DNA of 64,000 bases from an uncultured Lentisphaeria bacterium (GTDB taxonomy: Bacteria; Fidelibacterota; UBA8477; JABMPR01), in assembly GCA_964454335.1 (NCBI GenBank), contig CAYVVT010000001.1, forward strand, positions 432,083 through 496,082. The letters run 5' to 3'. Within the stretch, counting starts at the first letter, position 1. Every line of letters starts with the position of its first letter. The notes under the pieces were generated by a model. It was not told the DNA's origin and did no database searches. It saw nothing but the letters and a program-made list of their open reading frames with translations. Both the position numbers and the translations under genes were made by a program. Below are positions 6,374-36,648 of this stretch, piece by piece.

Positions 6374-6652
6374 ATGCTAGCATCAGCGTATGTGGTGGAA
6401 GTCGCACCGCCTTTGGCGTTGCTTACAGCAGAACGCTCCCTTGCGGAATCGTTCTGCACTGAATGCGTGCTTAACTCGGAACATATGCTAGCATCAGCGT
6501 ATGTGGTGGAAGTCGTAAAATGCCTCTGCTCAGAGGCATTTTACTTACAGAAGAATGCACCCATTTCGGCTGCATTCTTCCCAACAGAAACGAACTGCAA
6601 AGATAACTGGCTTGTTTCGCCGTATATACTAGCCTTGAATTATGTGGTGGAA
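6374..6652 (+). promoter_or_regulatory. Three spaced direct repeats (atgctagcat...tatgtggtggaa) plus a perfect hairpin, upstream of and overlapping the start of the ABC exporter operon.
   Basis: The 31-nt repeat atgctagcatcagcgtatgtggtggaagtcg occurs at 6374 and 6485, and a partial copy lies at 6631-6652 overlapping the ABC gene ATG. The hairpin aaaatgcctctg-ctc-cagaggcatttt is at 6517-6544. Confidence 0.5.
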
Positions 6653-8432
6653 TGAGGATTTTGGGCAGGAGGGTGACAGCTATCGGACTTACTCTTTCCG
6701 GGAGTTGGTCAGGGGTGTCTATCCCTATGTAAAGCCCTACAACCGGATCTTCTTCTTCGCGCTGGGCTGGGCTTTTTTCGGGGTGCTGCTGGTGCTGTTG
6801 CAGCCCCTGATCCTCAAGCACATCATCGACAGCAATATTCCGAATCAGGATTTTCGCGCTCTGACCATCTCTGCGGGGCTCTACCTGGGAACCATGATAT
6901 TGTCGGCCATCTTCGGCTTCTACAGCAACTGGATGGCCCAGAAAGCCGGAACCTATGCGGTGAACGATCTCAAGGTCTCACTCTTTGCTCATGTATTGAA
7001 ACTTGGACTACCCTTCGCGGAGTCCACCGCCGTGGGGAAACTGGTAAGCCGCATCGAGGCGGATCCCCAACGCATCATCGCAGTGACCTCCACCATGGCC
7101 CAACGGCTGCTCATGAGTTTCGGGATGATCATCGGGGCCTTCGTGATCCTGGCCTCGGTGGATGTGCGCTTTCTCATCATCACCCTGGCCGTCTTTCCCG
7201 TCGTCATCATCGGGGCCTGGTGGTCCTTCAGCTATTTCCGGCCCTGGTGGCGCAAGGACCGAGAGAAGTTCTCGGAAATGCTGGGAGTGCTGGCGGAGTT
7301 CGTTCGGGCCGCCGGGATCCTGCAGGTGTTCAACCGCACCGGCTGGGCAATCAACCGGGTCAGGAAAGCAACCCAGGACTTCAACCGCTTCAGCATCAAG
7401 GTGAGCTGGGTGAACTACGGCATCTTCCAGGGTCTGGGCTTCATGGAGGTGGCCGCCACGGTGATCGTCCTCATCTTTGGCGTGAAATGGGTGAATGAAG
7501 GAACGCTGACGGTGGGTGCCCTGGTGCTCTTCGCCCAGTACATCGCCCAGATCTACTGGCCCATCTGGATCTTCACAGAACAGATCGCCCAGCTGCAGTC
7601 CGCCGGAGGAGCGGCCGACCGTATTTTCTCTACCCTGGAATCAGATCCCTATATCGAATCCCCTGATGATCCAAAACCGTTGCCGGATATCATCGAAAGT
7701 ATTCGCTTCCAGAATGTCAGCTTCGGCTATGATGATGAGACCACCGTCATCGAGGATATGAGTTTTGAGATCAAGGGCGGTGACCAGATCGCCTTCGTGG
7801 GACCTACCGGCGGCGGTAAGTCAACGGTGATCAATCTGCTGTGCCGTTTCCGGGATCCGTATGATGGGCGCATCCTGCTGAATGGTATCGACATCCAGGA
7901 TTTTGATGTAGCTGAATACCGCCGACGATTCGGATTGGTGCTCCAGGACCTGTTCCTGTTCCCGGCGCCCATCGAAGAGAATCTCCGGGCATTCAGGGAG
8001 GAGATCCCACAGGCCAAACTGGAGGATGCTGCCCACCTCACGGACATCCATAATGCCATTCTCACCAAAAAAGAAGGCTATCAGATGGTTCTCAAAGAAA
8101 GCGGTGAGGGATTCTCCTACGGCCAGCGGCAGTTGATGGCCTTTGCCCGGGCACTCACGGTTCAACCCCAGATCCTGGTACTGGACGAAGCCACCTCCTC
8201 TGTGGACCCCGGCACAGAATTGCGTATCCAGGCCACCCTCAAGAAGCTCACCGAGAACCGGACCTCCTTCCTGGTGGCGCACCGCCTGAGCACCATCCGT
8301 CGAGCCACACGGATCATGGTCATCGAGGACGGCAGGATCGTGGAATCCGGCAGTCACGAAGAACTGCTTGAGCAGGATGGTGTCTATGCCGACCTGCTGG
8401 CTCATGCCGATCCGGACAGGGAGATGCTCTGA
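6642..8432 (+). CDS. ABC exporter, fused permease-ATPase. This is subunit 1 of a heterodimer and carries a degenerate signature (FSYGQ).
   Basis: Six N-terminal TM segments; Walker A GPTGGGKST; Walker B ILVLDEATS; H-loop present; the ABC signature reads FSYGQRQ instead of LSGGQ. Confidence 0.9.
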   Translation: MWWNEDFGQEGDSYRTYSFRELVRGVYPYVKPYNRIFFFALGWAFFGVLLVLLQPLILKHIIDSNIPNQDFRALTISAGLYLGTMILSAIFGFYSNWMAQKAGTYAVNDLKVSLFAHVLKLGLPFAESTAVGKLVSRIEADPQRIIAVTSTMAQRLLMSFGMIIGAFVILASVDVRFLIITLAVFPVVIIGAWWSFSYFRPWWRKDREKFSEMLGVLAEFVRAAGILQVFNRTGWAINRVRKATQDFNRFSIKVSWVNYGIFQGLGFMEVAATVIVLIFGVKWVNEGTLTVGALVLFAQYIAQIYWPIWIFTEQIAQLQSAGGAADRIFSTLESDPYIESPDDPKPLPDIIESIRFQNVSFGYDDETTVIEDMSFEIKGGDQIAFVGPTGGGKSTVINLLCRFRDPYDGRILLNGIDIQDFDVAEYRRRFGLVLQDLFLFPAPIEENLRAFREEIPQAKLEDAAHLTDIHNAILTKKEGYQMVLKESGEGFSYGQRQLMAFARALTVQPQILVLDEATSSVDPGTELRIQATLKKLTENRTSFLVAHRLSTIRRATRIMVIEDGRIVESGSHEELLEQDGVYADLLAHADPDREML

Positions 8433-10153
8433 TGGCCATCATGACCGCCACCAGACACGTCCTGGGCTGGTTCAGTCCATACTGGCGGAAACGCTGGAAG
8501 GGCATGCTGGGTCTCGTGGGTATCACCGTGGTCAGTATCGCCCTGGGAACGGCCTATCCCGTGATCTTCAAGTTCGTCATCGATTCGCTGGTGGAAGGAC
8601 AGAGCACAACAGACGTCCGATTCTTTGTCTGGCTGATCCTCATCGTAGGTGTGGCCAGAACCATTACCCGCTGGATCCTGCCGTCTTCACGCTATATGAT
8701 GAACCTCCTCATCGGGATGGACATAAAACTCTTTCATTTTGACAATCTGCTTAAAAAGGATCCGGCCTTCTTCGGACGTTACCGTTCCGGGGATCTCATC
8801 ACCCGCTTTTCGGACGATATCGACGGGGAGATCAAGCTGAACTGGTTTGCCGCCTCCGGTGTCATGCGGCCCATCGAGGCAGGTTTCACCCTGCTGTTCT
8901 CCATCGGCGTCATGCTGCTGCTGCACTGGAAGCTTACCCTGCTGGCCATCGCGCCGCTGCCCTTCATCGTGTGGATCATGAGCAAGACCGAGCACATGCA
9001 GCACACAGCCTATACCCGCCGGCAGGAGACCATCTCATTGACGAACAACATCCTGGAAAGCGCTTTCTCCGGGATCCGCATCGTCATCGGTTTCGTCATG
9101 GAGCAGGCCCAGGAGAAGCTGTTCAGAGCCAACATGGAAGAACGCAAAAAGGCCGAGGAACGGGTGATCTTCACCCGCTCCATCCTGGAGAGCGTGGGCA
9201 GTCTCATCAATCAGGTGGGGCTGGTGGTGGTGCTATTCGTGGGCGGCTTCTATGTCATCAATGGCGGCATCACGCTGGGGGATTTCTATGCCTTCATCGC
9301 CTATATGACGGGCATCACCGAACCCATCTGGACCATCTCCTGGTTCTTTGTCTCTCTCAAAATGGCAGAAACCTCTGTTGAACGCCTGGAGGAGATCGAG
9401 CAAAGTGAGAACCGTAAGGAGCGGTCAGGTCATTTTGCTGAGGAACAGAAGAAAATTAAACTCGAGGTGAATGACCTGCATTTCAGATTCCCGGAGGACA
9501 AGAAGTCCGTGATCAACGGTGTGAGCTTCAAGGCAAAAGCTGGGGAGAAGATCGGGATCGTTGGAGAGGTGGGTTCCGGGAAGACGGTCCTGCTCAAACT
9601 GATCTCGGGCTGGTTCTCACCGGATGTGGGCCGGGTGAATGTGAATGGCTATGAACTGGATGCCCTGGATGACGAGGCTCGGGCAGGAACAGTCGGATAT
9701 GTACCCCAGGACATTGAACTCTTCAGCGGGACCGTGGCGGATAACATCACCATGGGTCGCGAGGGTTTTCAGAGTCTGGAATCCGTGAATGAGATCGCCG
9801 TCATCGGTGAGGAGCTGGATCCGGAGAAGAAGCTGGAGCAGGGCGGTGTAGGTCTCAGTGGGGGACAACGCGCTCGAGTTGCGCTGGCGCGGGCGTTTTT
9901 CGGTGATACGCCGGTGTATATTTTCGATGATGTGACCTCGGCGCTGGATCTCAATACGGAGAAGATCCTGTGGCGGAACATCAACAGCTCTTACGTTAAT
10001 GCTCTGTTCCTGGTCGCCACACATCGGGAGGCAACAGCAGCCGAGATGGATCGGATCGTGTGGATCCGGGATGGGGAGATCTTTTGTGAGGGTGTGCATG
10101 AGGAGCTCCTGGCGGAGCAGCCGGGGTATCGGTCACTGTTTGCCCACGAGTAG
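8432..10153 (+). CDS. ABC exporter, fused permease-ATPase. This is subunit 2 of the heterodimer; its Walker B has DD in place of DE.
   Basis: Walker A GEVGSGKT; signature LSGGQRARV; Walker B VYIFDDVTSALD with the catalytic Glu replaced by Asp. The start overlaps the stop of the upstream gene (TGATG). Confidence 0.9.
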   Translation: MAIMTATRHVLGWFSPYWRKRWKGMLGLVGITVVSIALGTAYPVIFKFVIDSLVEGQSTTDVRFFVWLILIVGVARTITRWILPSSRYMMNLLIGMDIKLFHFDNLLKKDPAFFGRYRSGDLITRFSDDIDGEIKLNWFAASGVMRPIEAGFTLLFSIGVMLLLHWKLTLLAIAPLPFIVWIMSKTEHMQHTAYTRRQETISLTNNILESAFSGIRIVIGFVMEQAQEKLFRANMEERKKAEERVIFTRSILESVGSLINQVGLVVVLFVGGFYVINGGITLGDFYAFIAYMTGITEPIWTISWFFVSLKMAETSVERLEEIEQSENRKERSGHFAEEQKKIKLEVNDLHFRFPEDKKSVINGVSFKAKAGEKIGIVGEVGSGKTVLLKLISGWFSPDVGRVNVNGYELDALDDEARAGTVGYVPQDIELFSGTVADNITMGREGFQSLESVNEIAVIGEELDPEKKLEQGGVGLSGGQRARVALARAFFGDTPVYIFDDVTSALDLNTEKILWRNINSSYVNALFLVATHREATAAEMDRIVWIRDGEIFCEGVHEELLAEQPGYRSLFAHE

Positions 10154-10177
10154 GTTCAAACCTCCCAACGCACAAAT

Positions 10178-10590
10178 ATCCAGTTTCAAATTTCAAACGT
10201 CGGGTTGACGAACGTGGAGTGGTCGGCAATCCATACACGTCAGTAAAACCACGACCCGTCTCATCCCTTCTTTTTGAGGGATCAAAAAGAAGCACCCGCC
10301 TTCGCTTGCAGCTCCGGCGTGGCACGAAAAATCCTCCATTTCAGTTTTACCAGGGAAGCATCTGGGGCTGTTAATCAGCTTTGTTGCGGCAGAATTGAAA
10401 CTCGCTCGTTTCACTCCCTCAGACAACAATTCTGCTGCTTGCTCCCTTCGCTGATACAGCCATCCATCTGCTTCCCAAGGAGGTATTCGATGTTGAGTGC
10501 CAGGGCGCTAAGACGAGTGTAGCCCTCAGTCATTGCGAGGAGGGCAGAACTCACGGTTGGAGTTCTGAATGACGTGGCAATCTCCTCAGC
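10178..10590. repeat. Structured intergenic repeat unit, copy R1.
   Basis: It shares the head motif (cagtttcaaatttcaaac), the hairpin cttctttttg...caaaaagaag, the core ...cagggaagcatctggggctgttaatcagc...gcggcagaattgaaactcgctcg...cagacaacaattctgctgc...cttcccaag and the tail ...gttgagtgccagggcgctaag...cagtcattgcgag with the other copies. Confidence 0.8.
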
Positions 10591-10778
10591 AAACCTCGCG
10601 TATGTTGGTTAGTCCAGAAACCCGTCAAACCACCGGACAAGCATCGTTAATTCACCCTCGTTTGCTCATCAGTAGCTGTAATGCTAACTTATAGGCGTTC
10701 CCACTGGAGCTTCCTGCTGTAACCATTCTCACTCATTCTCAAAGCTGTACGATGACAAAGCATTGCAGGGGGATTGAT

Positions 10779-11819
10779 ATGTTCGATCTATCGAGACGCA
10801 AGTTCATCAAGTCCGGCTTCTATGCCGTCATGGGTAGTATGCTGTCGGTTTTCAGTTCGACGGGCTGCAGTATGCTGGGGAAGGGGAGGAAAGACTTCGT
10901 ACCCGGTTACCTGGAATTGCACAGCAGCGGGGAGCTAAAGAAGCGGGGCGATATGCTCTGGGAGATGATGGAGACCTGTGAGCTGTGTCCGCGACTCTGC
11001 GGGGTGAACAAGCTCAAGGGCGAAAAGGGATTCTGTGAGGCCAACGATAAACTGGAGATCACGGCCCATCATCCCCACTTTGGGGAAGAGCGGCCGTTGG
11101 TGGGTGTCGGTGGCAGCGGGACGATCTTCCTGACGAACTGCGGTCTACGCTGCGTCTTCTGCATCAACTGGGAGATCAGCCAGGGTGGTGTCGGCATGAA
11201 GGAGAGCCTCGAGAGATGCGCCGATATGATGCTGGAACTCCAGGACCGGGGTTGTCCCAACATCAATTTCGTCACACCCACGCACTATTCAGCGCATATC
11301 GTCAAGGCCGTGGATATTGCTGCGAGCAAAGGGCTGAATGTTCCGCTGGTTTGGAATACCTGTGGCTGGGAACGGGTGGTGATCCTGCAGATCCTGGACG
11401 GGATCGTCGATATCTATCTGCCGGATTTCAAGTATTCCGATAACGAGAGTGCCATCAAGTATTCATCCGGATCGGCAAGCTATGTCGAAGATACACAGCA
11501 GGCGCTGCTGGAGATGAACCGCCAGGTGGGAGTTGCCAAACCTGGACTCTTTGGGTTGATGCAGAGGGGTCTGATGATCCGGCATCTGGTAATGCCCAAC
11601 GATGTCAGCGGGACCAAGGGCGTCATCGACTGGATCGCGGAAAATCTGCCCAAGGATACCTATTTCAATCTGATGTCCCAGTACCGGCCCATGTACAAGG
11701 CGGCTGAGTATCCCAAGATCTCCCGGAGGCTTACCCGGGAGGAGTATGCCGAGGCGGTTAGATGGGTTAAGGAGGCCGGGTTGACGAATGTGGATATCCA
11801 GGGGATGAGTTTCTTCTAG
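10779..11819 (+). CDS. Radical SAM enzyme (AmmeMemoRadiSam / PFL-activase-like) with an N-terminal twin-arginine lipoprotein-like signal.
   Basis: CELCPRLCGVNKLKGEKGFC followed by NCGLRCVFCINWEISQ (CxxxCxxC); N-terminus MFDLSRRKFIKSGFYAVMGSMLSVFSSTGCS. Confidence 0.8.
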   Translation: MFDLSRRKFIKSGFYAVMGSMLSVFSSTGCSMLGKGRKDFVPGYLELHSSGELKKRGDMLWEMMETCELCPRLCGVNKLKGEKGFCEANDKLEITAHHPHFGEERPLVGVGGSGTIFLTNCGLRCVFCINWEISQGGVGMKESLERCADMMLELQDRGCPNINFVTPTHYSAHIVKAVDIAASKGLNVPLVWNTCGWERVVILQILDGIVDIYLPDFKYSDNESAIKYSSGSASYVEDTQQALLEMNRQVGVAKPGLFGLMQRGLMIRHLVMPNDVSGTKGVIDWIAENLPKDTYFNLMSQYRPMYKAAEYPKISRRLTREEYAEAVRWVKEAGLTNVDIQGMSFF

Positions 11820-11844
11820 AGTACCGATTTTACCAAGAACACAA

Positions 11845-12294
11845 TTTTCCAATTTCAAGTTTCAAACTTTGGATTGACCAACTGGATGTGGTTGGTAATC
11901 CATATTCGATGGTTCGCTGAGGAATTGGGATCCTTCTTCTTTTTGACGCGCCAAAAAGAAACAAAAAGCGTTTTTTTCTCACCTAACCAGGGAAGCATCT
12001 GGGGCTGTTATGCAGCTTAGTCGCGGCAGAATTGAAACTCGCTCGTTTCACTCCCTCAGACAACAATTCTGCTGCTCGCTCCCTTCGCTGATACAGCCAT
12101 CCATCTACTTCCCATGCGGGTATTCGATGTTGAGTGCCAGGGCGCTAAGGTGAGTGTAGCCCTCAGTCATTGCGAGCGCAGCGTGGCAATCTCGCCAGCG
12201 GACGACTTTGACACTTTGCGTTACGAGCAATGATCATCTGCCCAGGTCTGATCTCCAATTAACTCCAGCTCAACACAGTTCGATCAAATCCCGG
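11845..12294. repeat. Structured intergenic repeat unit, copy R2 (a full unit of about 450 bp, in tandem with R3).
   Basis: Over 85% identical to R1, R3 and R5 across head, hairpins, core and tail. Confidence 0.85.
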
Positions 12295-12295
12295 G

Positions 12296-12645
12296 ATTTC
12301 AAATTTCCAGTTTCTAGTTTCGAACTTTGGTTTGACTAACGTGGTATGCTTTGCAGCCCATATTCGATGGTTCGCTGAGGGATTGGGTTCCTTCTTCTTT
12401 TTGACGCGCCAAAAAGAAGCAAAAAGCGCTTTTTCTCACCTAACCAGGGAAGCATCTGGGGCTGTTAATCAGCTTAGTCGCGGCAGAATTGAAACTCGCT
12501 CGTTTCACTCCCTCAGACAACAATTCTGCTGCTCGCTCCCTTCGCTGATACAGCCATCCATCTGCTTCCCAAGCAGGCATTCGTTGTTGAGTGCCAGGGC
12601 ACTAAGACGAGTGTATCTCTCGGTCATTGTAATGCGGCCATAAAT
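12296..12645. repeat. Structured intergenic repeat unit, copy R3 (tandem, with a truncated tail).
   Basis: Near-identical to the R2 core; directly abuts R2. Confidence 0.85.
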
Positions 12646-12923
12646 GCCAGCGGCATATATGGCCAACGAAGCAACCCTCTCCGAATAGAGCTGTTCTATG
12701 GCAATGTTTTAAAAGATCCGACCCGGGAACTGCCATACTTAATGATCGGCCCCTACGCGAACACATCGATCAGACCAAACAAATTTCAATTTCACACATC
12801 CTCATTCTGGAATCCCCTCCCGCCTGCTGCAGGATCCAATCTTCTCCTAAAATCACGTTTTTCCCCAGCCCCCATGCTCTAACTTATTCTAAAGTATTCA
12901 ACTCATTGGTATCGGGGGATAGT

Positions 12924-15900
12924 GTGAAAAAATCCAGACGGTCATTTCCGGTTTCAACGATTTCATTGTCGGCAATTTCAGTGATTTTCCTGCTGGCATT
13001 CGTGACTGCAGGTCATGCGCAGCGTGTGACAGACGTGGAAGCTCTGCAAGCATTCAGTCAGGAGAAGCAGTTGGAATGGCAGGCGGCGCGAGCTGAGATC
13101 GAAGAGTACGCTCGGGCGAACAACATCCCTATCCAACAGATCCTTTTGGACGGCACTACCCTGGAGATCCAACGCCTGGTGAACGGGATCCCCATTTTCT
13201 ATATCACACATAACGCCAATGCGGCCATAACTACCCGTACAGACGAACTCTATCCCGGTGGGGATGCCGGTCTCAGTCTCAGCGGATCCGGATATGACAA
13301 GCTTGGTATCTGGGATGCGGATCAGGTGCGTTCCACACACGATGAGATGACTGGCCGGGTGACCTATGGTGACAGTGAGACCACACTGCATTATCACGCC
13401 ACCCATTGCGCCGGGACCCTCATCGCCAGTGGATCCACCGCCAGCGCCAAGGGTATGGCCTATGCTGCCGATCTCACCTCCTACGACTGGAGTTCGGACA
13501 TCTCGGAGATGTCATCCGCTGCCGCCAATGATCTGGAACTTTCAAATCACTCCTACGGCAGCAGCTCCGGTTGGGTAGGAAGTACCGCCTGGTACGGTGA
13601 TACCGGCGTGGACCAGGACGAATGCTATTACTTCGGCTTCTATAATCAGGATGCCCGGGACTATGATCATATCGCGTACCTGGCACCCTATTACCTTATT
13701 GTGAAATCCGCCGGCAACGACCGCAACGATGACGCTCCCAGCGAAGGAACAGCACACAGCCATAACGGTAGCGGTACCTATACCGACACCCATAACGACG
13801 ACGGACATGACAGCGGGTACGACACGATGCCCTTCGAGGCTGTGGCCAAGAATATTCTCACTGTGGGTGCTGTCTATGATGTCGCCAACTATACCCAGGC
13901 TTCCGATGTGACCATGTCGTCCTTCAGCAACTGGGGCCCGGCCGACGATGGCCGTATCAAGCCGGACCTGGTGGCCAACGGTATCAGCGTTTACTCCTGC
14001 CTGGAAACCGCCAACGATGCCTATGGATCTCTTTCCGGTACTTCCCAGGCCTCACCAAATGCCTGCGGAACTCTGGTCCTGCTGCAGCAGCATTATCAGA
14101 ATACCCATAGCACCAATGTGATGCGTTCAGCCACGCTGAAAGCCCTGGCGATCCACACTGCCGATGAAGCCGGGTCCAATACAGGGCCTGATTATGCCTT
14201 TGGCTGGGGATTGCTGAATGCCGAAGCGGCAGCCGACATCATCAGTGATGACGAGAATTATGGTTCCATTGCAGAATTGAACCTCTCCAGCGGCGAAAGC
14301 TATTCCCGGACCGTTACTGCCACAGGCAGCGATCCACTGAGAGTAACCGTGGTGTGGACCGATCCGCCGGGAACACCGGTATCGGCCTCACTGGATCCCA
14401 CGACGGCCATGCTGGTAAATGACCTGGACCTGCGGATCACCAAAGACGCCAGCACCTACTATCCCTGGAAGCTGGACAGGAGCAATCCAGCCAATGCCGC
14501 CACCAACAGCGCCGAGAATGACATCGATAACGTGGAGCAGGTCTATATTGCCAGTCCATCGAACGCAAGCTACACCATAGTGGTGGATCATGACGGCAGC
14601 CTTACGGGAGATTCACAGGATTTCTCCATCATAGTTTCCGGGCATTCATCCTCTTCCAGCGCCCCTGGTTGCTCTGACGGTCTTATCGGAATCAGTGACG
14701 GTGCTACCGATGTAGCAGTACAAACCGTCCTCCAATGGGAAGAGGTTGAAAGCGCCACGAGCTACGACCTCTATTTCGGTACGGACAATCCGCCCACCAG
14801 CGTGGTGAATGGTAGCAACCAGACCACGACTTCCTACAGCCCCTCACTGGCGTTGAATACGACCTATTACATCAAGATACTTCCAAAGAACACGCACGGG
14901 ACTGCCAGCGGGTGTGCGGTGTGGTCCTTCTCCGTGGGCTCAAAGATCCTGGAGGAGGATTTCGACGACTTCCTGGTGATCGGTACCGATAACAACTGGA
15001 CCAATGGCTCAGGTGACGATTTCGACTGGTCGGTGAATGTGGGCAGCACACCTTCAGGCAGTACAGGACCTTCCGGTGACCACAGCACAGGCTCCGATAC
15101 CTACCTTTTCACCGAATCCTCCGATCCCAACTATCCAGATAAGACCGCCTATCTGCTGAGTCCCAGCTTTGATCTGAGCAGCTCATCCAATCCCACCCTG
15201 GAGTTCTGGTATCACATGTACGGTTCCACCATGGGGGAACTCTATGTCGATGTCTATGCCAACAGCAGCTGGAACAACGCTGTCTGGAGCCTGACGGGCG
15301 ATCAGGGCAATTCCTGGTCTGTGGCGGTGGTGGATCTATCGGCATACAAAGCCTACTCCGATCAGCAGCTTCGGTTTCGGGCAGTGACGGACGGTTTCCG
15401 CAGTGACATGGCCGTCGATGATGTCACCGTCCGCAGTGAGGCATTCTACACCTTTACCGGCGGCAGCACATCGGCGCACACCTTCCCGAACACCGGGGCG
15501 ATCCTGCAGTTCACCTCCGCCAACAGCGGCGATGTCAACATCACGGCCATCAAGAACAATTCTGATCCCGGTGTGAACGGCTCCCTGCCCGAAGGGGTCG
15601 TAAACAGTTCGAGTGAACGTTACTGGGACCTGATCCTCAATTCCGGAAGCGCGGACGGTATTTATGCACTTACTCTGGACCTGGATGGCATGATGGGGAT
15701 CAGTGACTATTCCACCCTGAAGCTGCTCAAACGTGCCAACAGCAGCGGTGCCTGGGCAGTGGCCGGTACCAATGCCTATGCTGGATCCGGAACCTCTGTG
15801 AAATGGACGGGGATCAGCAGTGGTTTCTCCCAATTCGGCATCGGTGGGGCCAGCGATAACAGCCTGCCGGTGGTCCTGACGTCCTTCGCAGCGGAAGCAG

Positions 15901-16475
15901 TGCAGGGAGCGATCATATTGAGCTGGGTCACCGGCAGCGAGATCGAGAACCTGGGCTTCATTCTCGAACGTCGCGAATATCCTGAAGGTGCCTGGATCGA
16001 GATTGCGCATTATCAGGATCAACCGGAGTTGCGAGGGCAGGGGAGTAGCACGGCAGGGTACGCCTATTCCTTCCGTGATGCCGCGATCGTTCCAGGAAAG
16101 AGATACGACTACCGTCTAGCGGCCGTGGATTATCAGGGTAGCAGGGAGTATCAAGGGATGATTGTCACTGGTGTGACCCTGAACGCTGTCCTGCCTACGG
16201 ACTACACCCTGAAACAGAATTACCCGAATCCATTCAATCCCAGTACAGCCATCACATATGACCTGCCGGAAGATGTCAGGATAAGGATTCAGATCTTCGA
16301 TATGAACGGCCGTGAAATTGTCCTGCTTGTCGAAGGCCGGCAACCTGCAGGCTCCTATGATCTGCTCTGGAATGGCCAGGATCATTGGGGAGAATCGGTA
16401 GCACCAGGTGTCTACTTCTGCCACCTCCAAGCCGGTGATTTCTCGCAGACGATCAAGATGGTAGTGCTGAAATAG
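12924..16475 (+). CDS. Subtilisin-like serine protease (peptidase S8) with a MAM domain and a T9SS C-terminal sorting domain.
   Basis: HATHCAGT (His motif) and GTSQASPNACG (Ser motif); MAM-like block ...DDFDWSVNVGS...YLFTESS...LEFWYHMYGSTMGELYVDV; C-terminus NYPNPFNPSTAITYDL...VVLK; signal peptide after the GTG start. Confidence 0.9.
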   Translation: MKKSRRSFPVSTISLSAISVIFLLAFVTAGHAQRVTDVEALQAFSQEKQLEWQAARAEIEEYARANNIPIQQILLDGTTLEIQRLVNGIPIFYITHNANAAITTRTDELYPGGDAGLSLSGSGYDKLGIWDADQVRSTHDEMTGRVTYGDSETTLHYHATHCAGTLIASGSTASAKGMAYAADLTSYDWSSDISEMSSAAANDLELSNHSYGSSSGWVGSTAWYGDTGVDQDECYYFGFYNQDARDYDHIAYLAPYYLIVKSAGNDRNDDAPSEGTAHSHNGSGTYTDTHNDDGHDSGYDTMPFEAVAKNILTVGAVYDVANYTQASDVTMSSFSNWGPADDGRIKPDLVANGISVYSCLETANDAYGSLSGTSQASPNACGTLVLLQQHYQNTHSTNVMRSATLKALAIHTADEAGSNTGPDYAFGWGLLNAEAAADIISDDENYGSIAELNLSSGESYSRTVTATGSDPLRVTVVWTDPPGTPVSASLDPTTAMLVNDLDLRITKDASTYYPWKLDRSNPANAATNSAENDIDNVEQVYIASPSNASYTIVVDHDGSLTGDSQDFSIIVSGHSSSSSAPGCSDGLIGISDGATDVAVQTVLQWEEVESATSYDLYFGTDNPPTSVVNGSNQTTTSYSPSLALNTTYYIKILPKNTHGTASGCAVWSFSVGSKILEEDFDDFLVIGTDNNWTNGSGDDFDWSVNVGSTPSGSTGPSGDHSTGSDTYLFTESSDPNYPDKTAYLLSPSFDLSSSSNPTLEFWYHMYGSTMGELYVDVYANSSWNNAVWSLTGDQGNSWSVAVVDLSAYKAYSDQQLRFRAVTDGFRSDMAVDDVTVRSEAFYTFTGGSTSAHTFPNTGAILQFTSANSGDVNITAIKNNSDPGVNGSLPEGVVNSSSERYWDLILNSGSADGIYALTLDLDGMMGISDYSTLKLLKRANSSGAWAVAGTNAYAGSGTSVKWTGISSGFSQFGIGGASDNSLPVVLTSFAAEAVQGAIILSWVTGSEIENLGFILERREYPEGAWIEIAHYQDQPELRGQGSSTAGYAYSFRDAAIVPGKRYDYRLAAVDYQGSREYQGMIVTGVTLNAVLPTDYTLKQNYPNPFNPSTAITYDLPEDVRIRIQIFDMNGREIVLLVEGRQPAGSYDLLWNGQDHWGESVAPGVYFCHLQAGDFSQTIKMVVLK

Positions 16476-17156: not shown

Positions 17157-17337
17157 CCATATTCGATGTTGAGTGCCAGGGCACTAAGACTAGTTTAGCC
17201 CTCAGTCATTGCCAGCACAGCGTGGCAATCTCGCCAACGGACCACTCTGACACTTTGCATTACGAACAATGCCCACCTACCCAGGTCTGATCCAAGAATC
17301 ACTCCTGATCAACACGTTTCGATCAAAGCGCATGTTC
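17157..17337. repeat. Structured repeat, tail fragment R4.
   Basis: It matches the tail of R2 (gttgagtgccagggcactaag...gcgtggcaatctcgcca...gttcgatcaaa). Confidence 0.75.
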
Positions 17338-17675
17338 TCAAATTTCCAGTTTCAAGTTTCCAACATTGGTTTGACCAACTGGAAGTGGTTGGCAATCCAT
17401 ATTCGATGGTTCGCTGAGGAATTGGGATCCTTCTTCTTTTTGACGCGCCTAAAAGAAGCATATAGCGCTTTTTTCTCACCTAACCGGGGAAGCATCTGGG
17501 GCTGTTAATCAGCTTTGTCGCGGCAGAATTAAAACTCGCTCGGCGAAGGTCGCGCCGGAGTTAGAAGAACGAAGCCGGACGGCTCGCTCAGACAGCAATT
17601 CCGCTAGTCACTCACATCTTTGAATCATCCGTATAGATACTTCCCAAGTATGCCGCTATGTTTTGCACCAGGACG
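17338..17675. repeat. Structured repeat unit R5 (head plus core, with a roughly 35-nt insertion expanding the central hairpin).
   Basis: Head caaatttccagtttcaagtttc, hairpin ttcttctttttgacgcgcctaaaagaag, core with an inserted ggcgaaggtcgcgccggagttagaagaacgaagccgg. Confidence 0.8.
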
Positions 17676-20634: not shown

Positions 20635-20955
20635 TCATTGCTCTCTGCCTATCGTTTCAATCATGCGGTTGATGGTCTCAGGCTCGATGGGGGCGAACTG
20701 ATCGATGCGATCATCGATACGCTTGAAGACCGCCATCATCCTGTAGAAGAGGTCGTGGCTGTGTTTCGGTCCCGCCAGGAAATCCAATGCGCCGGCAGTA
20801 ATGGCCACCGGCATGACCAGCACATCCAGTATGGCTTCTGCACCGGACTTCAATAAGAAGATGGCCAGATCACTGAGGAGCCGGGCTCTTCCAACCTTCG
20901 GTAGTCTGATTTCTCCCAATCCCCAGGGCTTCTTCGTCCTTTGATCTGTATTCAT
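20635..20955 (-). CDS. Hypothetical small protein (106 aa), translationally coupled to the upstream amidase gene.
   Basis: Its ATG overlaps the amidase stop (TGATG); no family was recognised. Confidence 0.35.
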   Translation of the reverse strand: MNTDQRTKKPWGLGEIRLPKVGRARLLSDLAIFLLKSGAEAILDVLVMPVAITAGALDFLAGPKHSHDLFYRMMAVFKRIDDRIDQFAPIEPETINRMIETIGREQ

Positions 20956-22592
20956 CAGCTTGCCTCGTATTCCACGGTGTCCCGGAATTGTGGTGCCTGC
21001 CGGTGCCGGCTGGCCTGTTCGTAGGCAAAGGCAACTTTCAGCAACAGTGGTTCTGACCAGGCGGTGCTGAAGAATGATAACCCAACGGGGAGACCGTGAA
21101 CAAAACCCATGGGTACTGTGATGTTTGGATAGCCGGCCCGAGCCGCGGCGGAGGAACTGGCACCCAGGAAGTGATCGCCGTTGATCCAGTCGGTGAACCA
21201 GGCGGGTCCTCCGGTTGGTGCGATGATGAGATCGACCTCGTGTTTCGCCAGGGTGGCATCGATGCCGTCCCTGCCAGCCAGACGTTTTACCTTTTTCAGC
21301 GCCTGCTTGTATTCCTTGCTGCCCAGATCGCCTTTGGCCTGGGACTTGATGAGGATCTCCTGACCGAAATAGGGAAGCTCGGTATCGGCGTTTGCTTCAT
21401 TGAAGGCAATGAGCTGTTCAAGCGTCTTTACCCCGGCTGTTGGTCCTCTTGAAGCGAAATAGATGTTGAGGTCCGCCTTGAACTCGTAAAGCAGAACATC
21501 GTAGGAGGCTGAGCCATAGTCGCCCTTGGTGACGATGTCGGCCTCATCAACGAGTTCGGCACCCTGATCTTTCATCAACGCTACAGCCTCCTCCATCAGA
21601 GCATCGACACCCTCATGATAGCCCATAAGATTGCGGGCGATGCCTATGCGACTGCCTTTGAGACCCTCAGGATCAAGAAAACGCGTGTAATCACTGTGGA
21701 TCCTGTCCTGATGATCCTGAGTGATGGGATCCTGCGGATCAGGTCCTGCCAGAGCGCTGAGGAGGATGGCGCCGTCCCTCACCGTACGAGCCATGGGTCC
21801 CGCGGTGTCCTGGGTGTGGGCGATGGGGATGATACCGCTACGGCTTAGCATTCCCAGGGTCGGTTTGATCCCTACGATACCATTCTGGTGGGAAGGACAG
21901 ACCACCGAGCCGTTGGTCTCTGTTCCAATGGCAGCAGCGCATAAATTGGCTGAAGCTGCAACTCCCGAACCTGAGCTGGATCCGCAGGGATTCCGGTCCA
22001 GGGCGTAGGGATTGTGGGTCTGACCACCCCGGCCACTCCAACCGCTGGTGGATTTCTCAGAGCGGAAATTGGCCCACTCACTCAAATTGGTCTTCCCCAG
22101 CAGCACTGCTCCCGCCGCCCTGAGACGTTCGACGATGTGAGCGTCGTCCGCTGGGCGGGTATCCGTTAAGGCGAGTGATCCAGCCGTGGCGAGCATCTGG
22201 TCGGCTGTATCGATATTGTCCTTGATCATGATGGGAATACCGTGCAGTGGTCCCCGGATCCTACCAGAGGCCCTTTCCTCATCGAGTTTATCGGCGATCT
22301 CCAGTGCCTGTGGATTCACCTCGATGACAGCGTTCAGGGATGGCCCGGAACGATCGACATCTTCGATGCGCTGGAGGTAGGCTTTCGTGATGGATCTGGC
22401 GGTATGTTTACCGCTTTCCATGACCTCACTGAATTGAGCGAATGTCCATTCGTGAAATTCAAACTCGGGTATGGCAGCAGGTTGTTTCTCCCCTGCTCCG
22501 GATGAGCCTTCCGGAGCACAGGTTATCATTCCACCAATCGCCAAGGTAGAGCCGCCCAGGGCGCTGAGTTTGATGAAGTCACGTCGATGCAT
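20955..22592 (-). CDS. Amidase-signature family amidase with a TAT signal peptide.
   Basis: N-terminus MHRRDFIKLSALGG (TAT); amidase signature GGSSSGSGVAASANLCAAAIGTETNGS. Confidence 0.85.
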   Translation of the reverse strand: MHRRDFIKLSALGGSTLAIGGMITCAPEGSSGAGEKQPAAIPEFEFHEWTFAQFSEVMESGKHTARSITKAYLQRIEDVDRSGPSLNAVIEVNPQALEIADKLDEERASGRIRGPLHGIPIMIKDNIDTADQMLATAGSLALTDTRPADDAHIVERLRAAGAVLLGKTNLSEWANFRSEKSTSGWSGRGGQTHNPYALDRNPCGSSSGSGVAASANLCAAAIGTETNGSVVCPSHQNGIVGIKPTLGMLSRSGIIPIAHTQDTAGPMARTVRDGAILLSALAGPDPQDPITQDHQDRIHSDYTRFLDPEGLKGSRIGIARNLMGYHEGVDALMEEAVALMKDQGAELVDEADIVTKGDYGSASYDVLLYEFKADLNIYFASRGPTAGVKTLEQLIAFNEANADTELPYFGQEILIKSQAKGDLGSKEYKQALKKVKRLAGRDGIDATLAKHEVDLIIAPTGGPAWFTDWINGDHFLGASSSAAARAGYPNITVPMGFVHGLPVGLSFFSTAWSEPLLLKVAFAYEQASRHRQAPQFRDTVEYEAS

Positions 22593-22699: not shown

Positions 22700-22945
22700 G
22701 GTTAGTGACTGCAGCTCCGTTTAACATGTTGTTACTTTTTGAGGGAGCAAAAAGTAACCAAAAACTCCTTTCTTTACGCACATACTGGAAAGCATCTGTC
22801 GTCTGGTATTCAACTTGTTCGCTGTGGAATCGAAACTCGCTCACATGCGTTCGCTCAGACAGTGATTCCACTATTCGCTCACTGCGTTGAACCAGACTGG
22901 ACAGATACTTCCCAAGTAGGTATGCCACGTATCGCACCAGGACAA
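22700..22945. repeat. Structured repeat unit R6, a divergent copy showing compensatory stem changes.
   Basis: Hairpin gttactttttgagggagcaaaaagtaac against cttctttttg...caaaaagaag in other copies; stem gtggaatcg...cagtgattccac against gcagaattg...caattctgc. Confidence 0.75.
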
Positions 22946-25379: not shown

Positions 25380-25945
25380 TCAAGGGTTGGCACCGGGGGT
25401 GCAGGATAGTAAACCGGATCAACACCTCAATGTTGTGGTTTGTATATGTATCATTTTCTCCCTTCATTTTGAAGCGGCAAAAAGAAGCAAAAACCGCCTT
25501 CTCAGGGTTAATCCTTTCCAAGCAGGTATTCGTTGCCAAAATCCAGGACGTTCAAGCCTCAATCGAGAAGATTGCCTGAGAATTCCCCAAGCGGGGCTTT
25601 GTTCTGAGGGGTCGACACTTCAGTGTTGTGGTTTGATTATGTATCGGTTAAACCCTTCTTTTTGAAGGATCGAAAAGAAGTTAAAAATCCTTTTGCGCCA
25701 GAGATCGGATTGTGACTGTCACCGTTCATTCCGCCATGAAGCTGAAACTCGCCCTACCGGGCTTCAAACAACAGCTTCATTTCCGCTCCAATTCACGGGA
25801 CAGTCATGCTATCCGCTTTCGATTGCGCTTACCGAGCAGGTTCTCTATGCAAAGCATCAGGACTTATGAACTCCTTTGTCATTTCGAGAAAGCCAGAACT
25901 CCCTGTAGGGATTCTGGATGACGAAGCAACCTGCTAAGTGTCCCA
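25380..25945. repeat. Structured repeat region R7: a duplicated head hairpin, then a core and tail with compensatory substitutions.
   Basis: There are two acacNtcaNtgttgtggtttg...ttcNttttg...aaaagaag sub-units. Stem tgaagctgAAACTCGC...AAACAACAgcttca corresponds to gcagaattgAAACTCGC...CAGACAACAattctgc elsewhere. The tail is homologous to the R1 tail. Confidence 0.7.
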
Positions 25946-26539: not shown

Positions 26540-29152
26540 ATGCGTCACCTATTGATCGTTCTGATTTTGTCCATTTCGCTGCTAAAGGCGACCCCGGTAT
26601 ATTTTGCCTACCTCTGGCATATGCATCAGCCGATCTATTACCCAGGCGAAACCATCGTAGAGACGGAAACAGCAGGACACTACGAGTATTCTGTCATCGG
26701 GATCCACACAGACCGGACCGGACCGTATACCTCCTGGGTGCGGGATGCCATCGAAGCCGGCATGGACGCCGGCCTTGGTCAGCTGGGTGCGTCTGTGAGC
26801 TTCTCAGGTTCGCTCATAGAAAACCTGAATGTCCTGGAAGCCAACGGGACCGAGGCATTCACCAACTGGACTAACGACTGGATCTGGAGCCTTGCCCAGA
26901 CGACCACCCAGGGGAATCCGAGACTGGACCTGGTACGCTTTGGCTACTTCCACCCGCTGATGGCGCTCATTGACCAGACTTCCATATCTGAGCAGATCAT
27001 CAGCCATGGAGATCTGGCGAGTCCCATATTCCAAATCGCCACTCACTCCAGGGGGATCTTTCCTCCTGAGAATGCCTTTATGCTGCAGATGATCCCCGCG
27101 CTGGTGGAGAATGAGATAGACTGGGTCCTGGTGGATAACATCCATTTCGAACGGGCCACGCAGGGTTATCCCTATTCAACGGGCAGTAACCTGGTGGTCC
27201 CCAATCCGGCCGAACAGCTCAATCCAGATCCCGGTGATTGGCAGCAATTGAACGGCTTGTGGTGCCCTTCCGCCATCTCAGCCCAATGGGCTCACCAACC
27301 CCACTATGCAGCATATGTGGATCCCTCAACAGGGCTTGAAAGCCGTGTGGTCGTCGTACCTGCCTCACGGTACATCGGTACCGAAGACGCCCGGGGCGGT
27401 TATGGTGCTCTGCAGTACGAGACGGTATTCTCACAACTCGAAGCCGCAAACACGGATCCTGATCACCCCATCCTGGTGGTCATGGCCCACGACGGGGACA
27501 ACCATGGCGGTGGTACCTATTCATATTACCACAATAATTTCCAGCAGATGGTCGCCTGGCTCAGTGCCAACTCCGAACGCTTCGTCTGTACCACCATTCA
27601 GGACTACCTGGACCAGTTCCTCCCGGATCCCGACGATGTCATCCACGTGGAACCGGGCAGCTGGAGCGGCGCGGACAACGGGGACCCTGAATTCAAGAAA
27701 TGGAATGCAGATCCCCATGGCGGTTATTCGCCCGATCAGAACAGTTGGGCGGTGATGACAGCGGCCAACAACCTGGTGAGGCAGGCCGAAGGTGTATCGC
27801 CATCGGATCCAGCCCTGGAAACGGCCAGACGCTATCTGCACATGGGTCAGGGCAGCGACTACTGGTACTGGGACTGGTCGCAGGGCGGGATCTGGGATAC
27901 CCACCCAACCCGAGCTGCAAATCTGGCGATTACGAGTATTCAGCATCTTCTGGGGAATGCCCCTGAGGTCCAACCGCCGTCACTCTACCTGCCCCAACGC
28001 GAACCCTATAATCCCGGGGGTATGGAATGGGACAATCCACAGAGCAGTGATTTCCAGGTCTGGACCCTGGTCTATGACTGGACCGGTCTGGACAGTGTGT
28101 GGCTTTATGTCCGCGAGGATCAGGACGGCTTCAATGATCCGCAGACCATCGACAATGAGACATTCTCTGGAGGACCAGATGCAGGAGAATGGCTCGGCAT
28201 CGAGATGTCGGCAACGGTACTTGAACCACAGACCAATGTGGATCCCCTGGTCATCGCGGATCTGTACACAGCCCAGGTCGAGGGTTTTGAGAACGTCCTG
28301 CTTGACTACTATGTCCGGGCGGTAGATCCCTGGGGTAATGCAGCCACTTCCATCATCCAGCATGTATATGTGGGTGATCTGGGGGGCGGTGGCCCGGACG
28401 GCTACGTGATGGACGGCATCCTGGATGATGCTGCCGACCTTGTATTGGAATCCGACGAGCTCTTCCTATACGCACACACTGACGGTGAACAGGTCTATCT
28501 GGCAGCAAATTCCGCAGCGGAGATCGATGAAGACGTGTTCATCGTGGTGGCGAATCAGCCAGGTCCCATGGTCCCGGCGTTCTGGGCCAAAGCTGGACAG
28601 GTCTCGTTGTGGGAAGCCTACCTGGGGAATGAAAGCACCAACAGCTGGTCCGGCTGGTTCGATACCCAACAGGGGATCGACAACGCCACCGGTGAAGTTC
28701 TGGAAGGGATCTACCAGTTGAATGATCCTCCACCGGACAACCTCTATCTTGCTATGGTCACCTACGAGACGCAGGATGGGGGAGAATTGCTGCGACAGCT
28801 GCCCGTGGGCAACGATGACATCAATCTGGATGCGGCTGAGTACCTGGCGTGGCCTATCGATGTCATCACCGGGTTGAGCTCACACCAGCCCCATTCATTT
28901 GAGATCAGCATCTATCCCAATCCAGGGAATTTTCAGCAGATCATTCAGGTAAGAACGATCCAGGAGGATGTCCTGAGGATATCCCTGTACAACATACTGG
29001 GACAGCAGGTAATGGCGTGGGATGAAGAGTTGCCGGCCGGCGAGCATCATTTGAAACTCCGATCTGCAAAACCTCTGTCATCAGGGGTCTATCTGCTCAG
29101 GGTGGAAGGTCGGGACACCAACCAGCTCAGTAAATTGATCCGCATGAACTAG
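26540..29152 (+). CDS. GH57-like glycoside hydrolase with a T9SS C-terminal sorting domain.
   Basis: GH57-like conserved regions: WHMHQP (region I), FPPENAF (region III-like), MAHDGDNHGGG (region IV-like, HDxGxxxG), GQGSDYWYW (region V-like). Signal peptide. The C-terminus ISIYPNPGNFQQII...LIRMN is the T9SS CTD. Confidence 0.6.
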   Translation: MRHLLIVLILSISLLKATPVYFAYLWHMHQPIYYPGETIVETETAGHYEYSVIGIHTDRTGPYTSWVRDAIEAGMDAGLGQLGASVSFSGSLIENLNVLEANGTEAFTNWTNDWIWSLAQTTTQGNPRLDLVRFGYFHPLMALIDQTSISEQIISHGDLASPIFQIATHSRGIFPPENAFMLQMIPALVENEIDWVLVDNIHFERATQGYPYSTGSNLVVPNPAEQLNPDPGDWQQLNGLWCPSAISAQWAHQPHYAAYVDPSTGLESRVVVVPASRYIGTEDARGGYGALQYETVFSQLEAANTDPDHPILVVMAHDGDNHGGGTYSYYHNNFQQMVAWLSANSERFVCTTIQDYLDQFLPDPDDVIHVEPGSWSGADNGDPEFKKWNADPHGGYSPDQNSWAVMTAANNLVRQAEGVSPSDPALETARRYLHMGQGSDYWYWDWSQGGIWDTHPTRAANLAITSIQHLLGNAPEVQPPSLYLPQREPYNPGGMEWDNPQSSDFQVWTLVYDWTGLDSVWLYVREDQDGFNDPQTIDNETFSGGPDAGEWLGIEMSATVLEPQTNVDPLVIADLYTAQVEGFENVLLDYYVRAVDPWGNAATSIIQHVYVGDLGGGGPDGYVMDGILDDAADLVLESDELFLYAHTDGEQVYLAANSAAEIDEDVFIVVANQPGPMVPAFWAKAGQVSLWEAYLGNESTNSWSGWFDTQQGIDNATGEVLEGIYQLNDPPPDNLYLAMVTYETQDGGELLRQLPVGNDDINLDAAEYLAWPIDVITGLSSHQPHSFEISIYPNPGNFQQIIQVRTIQEDVLRISLYNILGQQVMAWDEELPAGEHHLKLRSAKPLSSGVYLLRVEGRDTNQLSKLIRMN

Positions 29153-31284: not shown

Positions 31285-31520
31285 TGTGAATCAGTACTTC
31301 TTTTTGATGCGCCAAAAAGAAGCAAAAGGCGCTCTTCTACAATTGACCAGGAAAGCATCTGGTGCAATCAATCAACTCATTCGCGGTAGAATTGAAACTC
31401 ACCCCGGTAGTACCGGGGCTCAGACAACAATTCTGCTTCCCGCTCACTCATTGTTGACGCCCTCCGGCTGCTTCCCAAGCAGGTTTGTTTTGTTGAATGC
31501 CGGGGTGGAGATCCGGGAGG
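31285..31520. repeat. Structured repeat unit R8, a core copy with an alternative central hairpin.
   Basis: cttctttttgatgcgccaaaaagaag, then ...gcggtagaattgaaactcaccccggtagtaccggggctcagacaacaattctgc..., ending cttcccaagcagg. Confidence 0.75.
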
Positions 31521-35451: not shown

Positions 35452-36648
35452 CTAAACCTCATTCGTCAATTGATAGGTGTCCCTGGCGATGGCCAGTTCC
35501 TCGTTGGTGGGGATCACGTAGATCCCGACTATTGAATCCTGAGTGTGCACCGAGCCCTCCCGACCTTCGCAGTCTCGGTTCAGCTGCTTATCGAGGATGA
35601 TGCCCAGGCCATCCAGGTTTCCCAGGATGCGTGCGCGCATAACTGCACCACCCTCGCCGATCCCGCCGGTGAAGATGACGGCATCCACGTGATTGAGAAC
35701 GGCCATATAGCCGCCGATGTATTTGCGGACCCGATAGGCGAAGATATCCAGCGCCATGCCGGCGGCTGTATCTCCACTCCCGGCACGTTCCTCCAGATCC
35801 CGGACATCGTTGGAGCTGCCGGAAAGTCCAAGCAATCCGGACTTCTTGTTGAGAATGAGGCTGATCTCCTCACGCTTGTAGCCCTTACGCTGCAGATAGA
35901 GCAGGATCTCAGGATCCAGGTCGCCGCTACGGGTACCCATCACCAGACCCTCGAGAGGGGTCAGTCCCATGCTGGTATCAACGGAGAGTCCATTCTCAAT
36001 GGCCGTGATGGAACTACCGTTCCCCAGATGACAGGTGATGACATTCACCCCGTACCTGTCATGGTCAGTGAGTTCGGCATAGCGACGTGCCACGAAACGG
36101 TGGGAGATACCATGGAATCCATAGCGGCGGATGCGGTATTTCTCGTACAGCTCATGCGGTAGTGCGTAGCGATATGCCTTGGGCGGCAGGCTCTGATGAA
36201 AGGCGGTATCAAAACAGGCTACCTGAGGGATGTCACCGAAGATCTTGCGAGAGGTCTGAATACCGCTGAGGTTGGGTGGATTGTGCAGGGGAGCCAGATC
36301 GAAACAGGCTTCTACTCCGGCCTCCAACTCGTCGTCGATGAGTACAGATCCGGTGTAGGCCTCGCCACCGTGGACCACACGGTGGCCGCAGGCATTGACC
36401 TCTGCCAGTCCCTGCAGAACACCCTTCTCCGCATGGGTTATCATGGCGGTGATGATCTCGAACCCGGCGGTGTAATTCTTGACAGGCATGTGATAGCTGA
36501 TCTCACCACGTTTAGAAAGCTGGGAAGCCTCGGAATCATTTTTGCCGATACGCTCAATGAGACCGCTGGCCACCTGCTCCTCAGACGGCATGTCAAAGAG
36601 CCTGTACTTGATGGACGAGCTCCCGCAGTTGAAGACCAGGACCATCAT
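35452..36648 (-). CDS. ackA: Acetate kinase.
   Basis: VLVFNCGSSSIKYRLFDM... and the rest match the acetate/propionate kinase family. Confidence 0.9.
   Translation of the reverse strand: MMVLVFNCGSSSIKYRLFDMPSEEQVASGLIERIGKNDSEASQLSKRGEISYHMPVKNYTAGFEIITAMITHAEKGVLQGLAEVNACGHRVVHGGEAYTGSVLIDDELEAGVEACFDLAPLHNPPNLSGIQTSRKIFGDIPQVACFDTAFHQSLPPKAYRYALPHELYEKYRIRRYGFHGISHRFVARRYAELTDHDRYGVNVITCHLGNGSSITAIENGLSVDTSMGLTPLEGLVMGTRSGDLDPEILLYLQRKGYKREEISLILNKKSGLLGLSGSSNDVRDLEERAGSGDTAAGMALDIFAYRVRKYIGGYMAVLNHVDAVIFTGGIGEGGAVMRARILGNLDGLGIILDKQLNRDCEGREGSVHTQDSIVGIYVIPTNEELAIARDTYQLTNEV

Follow-up and report, generated by a model that had tools for sequence, protein, structure and literature searches.

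A conserved twin-arginine N-terminus on a PflX-like radical SAM enzyme, a candidate for export from the cytoplasm

Radical S-adenosylmethionine (SAM) enzymes depend on SAM itself, on an electron donor of very low potential and on being shielded from oxygen, and to our knowledge they are regarded as strictly cytoplasmic. Here we describe a gene encoding such an enzyme with a twin-arginine signal at its N-terminus. It lies at 10779..11819 (+; stop codon included) of a 64,000-nucleotide stretch of contig CAYVVT010000001.1 (assembly GCA_964454335.1, forward-strand positions 432,083 to 496,082), from an uncultured bacterium labelled Lentisphaeria and placed by GTDB in Fidelibacterota; we refer to this whole stretch as the window. 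The closest named homolog genome is from Fidelibacterota.

The closest structure to the window protein is that of the pyruvate formate-lyase (PFL) activating enzyme PflA (PDB 3c8f and 3cb8), which matches our structural model with a TM-score of 0.67 on the target and is likewise a small, single-domain protein. Both have the cluster motif and, read by eye, D-x-K and R-H-x-V-x-P-type motifs. However, PflA is cytoplasmic, lacks the N-terminal four-cysteine motif of the window protein and has PflB as its partner; sequence identity is only about 12%, and the window protein scores far under the cutoff of the PFLA model. A second point of comparison is offered by the radical SAM maturases that tie this chemistry to periplasmic proteins, namely the anaerobic sulfatase-maturating enzyme, QhpD and the maturase of the HXS system, a radical SAM enzyme acting on an exported protein (PMC13128918). 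In these systems the enzyme remains in the cytoplasm and the substrate bears the export signal, whereas in the window it is the enzyme that bears the signal. A third is the twin-arginine translocation (Tat) system, which exports cofactor-loaded enzymes that have folded and received their cofactors beforehand; in Rieske proteins the signal is retained as an anchor, with the domain outside. The S/T-R-R-x-F-L-K signal of Rieske proteins, hydrogenase small subunits and NADP-containing glucose-fructose oxidoreductase is also found here. None of these exported redox proteins, however, is a radical SAM enzyme, and once exported none depends on a consumable co-substrate from the cytoplasm such as SAM.

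A PflX-like radical SAM enzyme behind a conserved signal

The gene was originally predicted to encode a radical SAM enzyme, and this identification is borne out. PF04055 (Radical_SAM) is the sole Pfam match of the 346-residue product (41 bits against a gathering threshold of 29.5; residues 116-228), and the match contains the cluster motif C121-x3-C125-x2-C128 (11139..11162, +), which is invariant in the 86 signal-bearing and 122 other relatives described below. A further motif of four cysteines, C67-x2-C70-x3-C74-x11-C86 (10977..11036, +), is invariant in both the signal-bearing and the signal-less clade and is probably an extra metal or cluster site; AlphaFold2 modelled this region at low confidence, as expected for a metal site without its metal. 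The cysteine strings cited in the original prediction, NCGLRCVFCINWEISQ for the cluster and CELCPRLCGVNKLKGEKGFC for the stretch from C67 to C86, are both present in the translation. As modelled, the protein has a partial TIM-barrel radical SAM fold (mean predicted local distance difference test score, pLDDT, 80; predicted TM-score, pTM, 0.81). The top Foldseek match in the PDB is the PFL-activating enzyme 3c8f (E = 7.5e-7) and the top 50 are all radical SAM enzymes; a sequence search of the PDB with the window protein returned nothing significant.

The catalytic domain, F40-F346 (10896..11816, +), is common to signal-less relatives, and distant homologs align from query residues 38-66 onwards. 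The seven cluster cysteines and the conserved core residues, which include H100, E103, E104, N130, N161, N193, D211, D216, R268 and Y302, are kept in both the signal-bearing and the signal-less clade, and judged by these residues the window protein is a catalytically intact radical SAM enzyme. Its relatives number 5955 at E up to 0.001; close homologs carry the JGI label "putative pyruvate formate lyase activating enzyme", and we take the large family to be COG1313/PflX (K04070). Placed by full-length homology, which includes the N-terminal C-x2-C-x3-C-x11-C motif, the protein belongs to the PflX-like family, a sister group of the PFL-activase and AmmeMemoRadiSam enzymes.

The N-terminal string on which the original prediction was built, MFDLSRRKFIKSGFYAVMGSMLSVFSSTGCS, is found as residues 1-31 of the translation. 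Its n-region holds the twin-arginine motif S5-R6-R7-K8-F9-I10-K11 (10791..10811, +), in which R6 and R7 are (nearly) invariant in alignments, followed by an uncharged, only moderately hydrophobic h-region of 18 residues, S12-G29 (SGFYAVMGSMLSVFSSTG; 10812..10865, +). This ends in a possible lipobox under a relaxed PROSITE-type rule, S27-T28-G29-C30, or a signal peptidase I site (10857..10868, +), and a basic linker, S31-D39 (SMLGKGRKD; 10869..10895, +), leads from the signal to the catalytic domain. The uncharged run is 23 residues long, its best 13-residue Kyte-Doolittle window averages 1.5 against a family mean of 1.65, and the flanking charges are +4 on the N-terminal and +1 on the C-terminal side. 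AlphaFold2 models residues 6-27 as a low-confidence helix, and pLDDT falls below 50 at residues 23-36.

The reading frame that supplies this N-terminus, an open reading frame (ORF) at 10752..11819 (+), offers two in-frame ATG codons. From the ATG at 10779, which is preceded by a Shine-Dalgarno-like AGGGGG about 7 nucleotides upstream, translation gives the 346-residue product beginning MFDLSRRKFIKSGFYAVMGSMLSVFSSTGCSMLGKGRKDF. This start is used by the NCBI and ENA gene calls (P0001, 346 residues, an identical protein present on 4-6 public contigs) and agrees with the homologs, in which the arginine pair occupies residues 6-7. One JGI call (P0271, 355 residues) uses the ATG at 10752, which moves the arginine pair nine residues deeper.

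The motif in the window protein is beyond chance. We scanned all six frames of the 64 kb for x-RR-x-hydrophobic-hydrophobic-x with a hydrophobic stretch behind it; ORFs of 100 residues or more contain two such sites, both at the N-termini of long ORFs. The second site is the N-terminus of an amidase (MHRRDFIKLSALGG). This gene, at 20955-22592 (-), encodes 544 residues with a PF01425 match of 313 bits, and its Tat-type N-terminus, MHRRDFIKLSALGGSTLAIGGMITC, ends in a cysteine. The presence of a Tat-type N-terminus on the amidase indicates that the organism uses this style of signal.

The original prediction proposed aligning homologs to see whether the twin-arginine segment is conserved, and it is. 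Among the 120 closest homologs (65-76% identical), 114 are full length, and 103 of these begin with [ST]-R-R-x-[FIMV]-[ILV] followed by 12-26 uncharged residues; the mean Kyte-Doolittle hydropathy of the uncharged stretch, 1.65, is typical of Tat signals. Scanning a single genome for each species, we recovered 581 relatives from about 18 phylum-level lineages. Nearly all of the best 80 have the same twin-arginine N-terminus, and these 80 come from Bacteroidota, Balneolales, Ignavibacteriales, Caldithrix, Planctomycetota, Lentisphaeria, Desulfobacterales, Syntrophaceae, Syntrophorhabdaceae, Myxococcota, Gemmatimonadota, Acidobacteriota, Nitrospira, Omnitrophota, Auribacterota, WOR-3, Chloroflexota, Spirochaetaceae and Armatimonadota; Fidelibacterota and Latescibacterota are also represented, among the closest homologs. 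Further signal-bearing lineages are found at 46-52% identity, some with textbook cleavage sites (for example, ITRRDFIK...LLLSPSSLHA, with K after the cut), and one distant homolog, P0127, passes the curated Tat model TIGR01409 with 20.1 bits.

To relate the signal to descent, we grouped 208 catalytic cores by average-linkage clustering on identity, a procedure by which monophyly of the signal-bearing clade is approximate. That clade has 86 members with core identity to the window protein of at least 58%; 72 begin with a twin-arginine signal, six with a hydrophobic segment lacking the arginine pair and five with an unclassified extension, and three have no extension. In one of the proteins classed as hydrophobic without the pair (L051), SRRHFIKSS can be read in frame directly ahead of the annotated start. 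The other 122 relatives, with core identities of 34-51%, are PflX-like proteins of about 300 residues that share the entire catalytic domain with the window protein, down to C-x2-C-x3-C-x11-C, CX3CX2C, H100, E103, E104, N130, D216 and R268. They differ in that the N-terminal extension is absent in 114 of the 122; seven have an unclassified extension and one a twin-arginine signal. In this comparison of cores the twin-arginine signal marks a clade.

A membrane partner in other genomes

We next asked what stands beside the gene elsewhere. Across 82 related loci the sole recurrent neighbour is a protein of about 765 residues, encoded directly upstream on the same strand in 14 of them and often overlapping the start of the radical SAM gene. 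It passes the NCBI model NF037959, "fused MFS/spermidine synthase" (45-68 bits against a 40-bit cutoff), and carries PF01564. Searching in the other direction, from the partner, we find that four of five further contexts have a Radical_SAM gene overlapping the partner's stop codon, and all four of its products begin with a twin-arginine signal. The two genes, translationally coupled, form a module in which they usually overlap or are closely spaced (L063:4122-7495, L166:5001-8395, L167:5001-8370, L168:1386-4783, L169:5001-8398 and 12 more loci), in metagenome-assembled genomes (MAGs) assigned to Desulfobacterales, Chloroflexota, Myxococcota, Spirochaetaceae, Lentisphaeria, Balneolales, Chitinophagales and Nitrospira.

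The partner has seven membrane helices on each side of a central domain; a coarse consensus segmentation left the C-terminal half ambiguous, and the count was settled with AlphaFold2 helix boundaries. In a representative (P0272) a hand count gives about 22 Lys and Arg residues in the predicted cytoplasmic loops and about four in the others, and per-sequence counts agree. This bias predicts that the spermidine-synthase-like domain is periplasmic. An alignment with Thermus SpeE (1uir; E = 9e-22) shows that the acidic residue which binds ribose (AELD) is retained in the domain. SGGAGG stands there in place of GGGEG, and FIGIMEP in place of the catalytic IIDLTDP, and the canonical catalytic Asp pair is absent. 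Our reading of this alignment is that the domain has a SAM fold and is not a canonical aminopropyltransferase.

For the signal-less relatives we found no widely conserved gene neighbour in 57 loci longer than 4 kb. Their sole recurrent neighbour is a PPP-type metallophosphoesterase (about 216 residues, GDIHG...GDxxDRG), directly downstream on the same strand in eight of the 57, all from one subclade (the metagenome loci L098, L106, L126, L135, L139, L150, L154 and L158); it is uninformative on the substrate.

Export weighed against other explanations

Taken together, the comparisons identify the N-terminus as a conserved, clade-defining signal with the charge layout predicted for an exported protein. 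We propose that the window protein is a Tat-exported, membrane-tethered radical SAM enzyme whose catalytic domain lies outside the cytoplasm, a reading that we hold to be moderately probable. In such a scheme, folding and the insertion of the iron-sulfur clusters would take place in the cytoplasm, and the Tat system would then carry the folded enzyme across the inner membrane. It would stay on the outer face of that membrane through its uncleaved signal or, possibly in this organism, through a lipidated Cys30, and would perform SAM-dependent radical chemistry on an envelope or periplasmic substrate. SAM might leave the cytoplasm as a bound cofactor or, in the subclade with the membrane partner, come from that partner, and the low-potential periplasmic donors of anaerobes, which dominate among the carriers, might serve as reductant; both suggestions are speculative.

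The predicted topology of the signal supports export. Family-wide the mean flank charge is +4.3 on the N-terminal and +0.8 on the C-terminal side, and the N-flank is the more positive one in 100 of 105 sequences, which predicts that the N-terminus is inside and the domain outside. The region before the conserved domain, signal plus linker, spans 26-80 residues in homologs; the linker alone varies from a few to about 40 residues and is the main source of this spread. Chloroflexota homologs have LSSC or LCSC at the end of the signal and then a Pro/Thr/Ser-rich tether, and a lipobox cysteine with a Pro/Thr-rich tether is, as a sequence pattern, a hallmark of exported lipoproteins. In the subclade linked to the membrane partner, Lys or Arg occurs inside the h-region (for example, NTAKLCFKVGLSAIF), which is in keeping with a Tat signal but not with a stable membrane helix. 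The original prediction also called the signal lipoprotein-like. For the window protein this holds in so far as S-T-G-C fits a relaxed lipobox, with Ser in place of the usual Leu, Val or Ile at position -3; as a family feature it does not hold, because only about 10 of 105 homologs fit. Lipidation at Cys30 is therefore possible in this organism but is not the general mode of the family.

Several observations weigh against export. We know of no periplasmic source of SAM or of a reductant near -450 mV, both of which radical SAM chemistry needs. The curated Tat models are unconvincing for the window protein. The signal was described as a canonical twin-arginine one, and the motif itself is canonical, but the window N-terminus scores 13.1 bits on TIGR01409, under the curated cutoff of 16.7, and has no match to Pfam TAT_signal (PF10518). 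Among 48 family N-termini, TIGR01409 matches 13 at a permissive E of up to 10 and PF10518 matches eight. A few members of the clade, about five, have no signal (L062, L072 and probably L036 and L049), which indicates that export is not obligatory for the enzyme, and a few others have hydrophobic N-termini without the arginine pair. In one of these, L045, positive charges follow the helix, a layout that would hold the domain inside. The h-region shows residue-specific conservation at Y15, G20 and F25, a hint that it persists in the mature protein. Finally, no gene for the membrane partner occurs in the 64-kb window.

These points lead to the alternative that survives best, namely that the N-terminus is a membrane anchor only and that the catalytic domain stays in the cytoplasm, supplied with SAM and flavodoxin or ferredoxin and acting on a membrane-associated substrate. 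The established cofactor needs of radical SAM chemistry favour it, as do the L045 layout, the plain hydrophobic helix that replaces the twin-arginine signal in some members, the members with no signal at all and the conserved residues of the h-region. A few N-termini also match Rieske or PetC signal-anchor models (the Rieske Tat-signal model matches two of the 48), but Rieske-type anchors likewise put their domain outside. The charge bias in 100 of 105 sequences is the opposite of what a cytoplasmic domain calls for, and the exact S/T-R-R-x-F-L-K consensus has no known use in a simple anchor. The h-regions are weak as membrane helices at a mean of 1.65, with charged residues inside those of the partner-linked subclade, and among the homologs are some with AxA-type cleavage sites or with Pro/Thr tethers behind a lipobox cysteine. 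On balance we consider a cytoplasmic, merely anchored enzyme unlikely.

Another explanation accepts a real Tat signal and places the chemistry before export: the enzyme would carry out a one-time modification in the cytoplasm, on itself or on a bound partner without a signal, and would then take that partner out with it as a hitchhiker; turnover of SAM outside the cell would not be required. Tat is generally known to export complexes already folded and loaded with cofactors, and hydrogenases are an established case of hitchhiking. PFL-activase-type enzymes act on proteins and spend one SAM per activation, and the signal-less members of the clade show that function in the cytoplasm is feasible. 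Export of a heterodimer by Tat has been described (PMC10924467). However, no conserved soluble partner gene is present in the 82 loci, and the sole recurrent partner is a 14-helix membrane protein, which could not hitchhike. Co-export after a cytoplasmic modification is speculative and seems to us rather improbable.

Membership in a known activating system is very improbable. The original prediction compared the protein with AmmeMemoRadiSam and PFL-activase-like enzymes, and the comparison stands for the cysteine pattern and the fold: AmmeMemoRadiSam radical SAM enzymes have the same N-terminal CxxCPxxC...GxC pattern and the same overall architecture, and the fold is that of the PFL activases. 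It fails for AmmeMemoRadiSam membership. An NCBIfam profile search of the window protein gave sub-threshold matches only, with 17.4 bits on the AmmeMemoRadiSam model TIGR04337 against a curated cutoff of 220, and 12-21 bits on the glycyl-radical-enzyme activase models (TIGR02494, TIGR02493, NrdG and others) against cutoffs of 131-496. As a positive control, a true AmmeMemoRadiSam enzyme (L043:693-1718, -) scores 330 bits on TIGR04337; a true member is 27% identical to the window protein over 267 residues (E = 2e-10), and AmmeMemoRadiSam enzymes, unlike the window protein, have no export signal. The original prediction had also stated that no AMMECR1 or MEMO1 partners are present here, and we agree. 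A tblastn search with a true MEMO1-type protein finds no such gene in the 64-kb window, and Pfam scans of neighbouring window ORFs show no AMMECR1, for which no dedicated search was made. No second ORF with CX3CX2C occurs in the window, and a glycyl radical enzyme is neither among the 23 window proteins scanned nor recurrent in the 82 related loci. In two Bacteroides-labelled MAGs a true AmmeMemoRadiSam gene (330 bits) does stand divergently beside the Tat-type gene (L034:2009-5649 and L043:693-3404), in L034 accompanied by a MEMO1-type gene (247 bits). With only two of 82 loci showing it, this adjacency is probably coincidence.

Hardly credible is an annotation artefact, also raised as a mis-assigned start in the original prediction, in which translation would truly begin near M58-M64, where the signal-less relatives of about 300 residues start, and the Tat-like segment would be a translated 5' leader: the extension is conserved as protein over about 18 phyla with the arginine pair at a fixed position, a conserved F-E-P-G-Y-L-x-L-H helix (residues 40-48) that signal-less relatives also have precedes the internal Met residues, the Shine-Dalgarno-like sequence stands before the ATG at 10779, and the alignments do not consist of homologs that start at MLWEMMETCELC with no conserved extension upstream.

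Surroundings of the gene and meaning for the family

In the window the radical SAM gene stands alone, with 626 bp upstream and about 1.1 kb downstream, both spacers being filled with repeats. The original prediction placed it directly downstream of a heterodimeric ATP-binding cassette (ABC) exporter pair. The pair does lie upstream, at 6642-10153, but the 626-bp gap with its repeat element separates the two, and the pair is not a conserved neighbour: it is adjacent in none of 81 other loci, and we reject it as a functional partner. A scan for promoters and terminators around the gene gave nothing above shuffled expectation.

The spacers hold a dispersed intergenic repeat of about 330-460 nucleotides, whose copies are 85-94% identical. 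It occurs once upstream of the gene (10173-10535) and twice in tandem downstream (11842-12172 and 12300-12629), with partial copies at 17160-17542, 22735-22923 and 31297-31505 and the core palindrome also at 25462 and 25655. Each copy contains the palindrome CTTCTTTTTGA-N5-CAAAAAGAAG, which has seven sites in the 64 kb where none is expected. The repeats flanking the gene have no match in Rfam. Downstream of the gene, a 99.5%-identical strain (L083) has a single copy in place of two, which makes the copy number polymorphic. A different, 31-nucleotide direct repeat, ATGCTAGCATCAGCGTATGTGGTGGAAGTCG, is present in three copies (6374-6404, 6485-6515 and 6626-6656; two identical, one 68%) just upstream of the first ABC exporter gene and extending into its start.

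Other genes of the window bear on the identity of the organism. An S8 subtilase with a MAM domain (1189 residues; 12906-16475, +) and a GH57-family protein (26540-29152, +) both end in Por_Secre_tail, a type IX secretion sorting domain, and acetate kinase and phosphotransacetylase are encoded at 35452-37643 (-). Together, the Por_Secre_tail proteins and the acetate kinase and phosphotransacetylase genes point to a fermentative member of the Fibrobacterota-Chlorobiota-Bacteroidota (FCB) group.

Our searches of the open-access literature turned up no account of a radical SAM enzyme that is exported or has a Tat signal, nor of the partner family. Hundreds of species from about 18 phyla have an intact radical SAM enzyme with a conserved Tat signal, which challenges the view that these enzymes act in the cytoplasm only; the species are mostly anaerobes or organisms of sediments and low-oxygen habitats. 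Extending our proposal for the window protein to the family, we suggest, as a tentative generalization from sequence, that there may be a widespread class of extracytoplasmic radical SAM enzymes, exported in folded form by Tat, tethered to the outer face of the inner membrane and engaged in envelope chemistry, with SAM either bound to the enzyme or delivered by the partner. Should the domain stay inside after all, the family would still show the Tat consensus reused as a membrane anchor. If export is true, SAM-based and radical SAM chemistry would occur outside the bacterial cytoplasm, and the questions would become by which route SAM reaches the periplasm, what reduces the cluster there and which envelope substrate is acted on. 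The finding is the first cell-biological handle on the uncharacterised PflX-like family, and it connects some PflX-like proteins with a membrane protein, "fused MFS/spermidine synthase", that is likewise uncharacterised.

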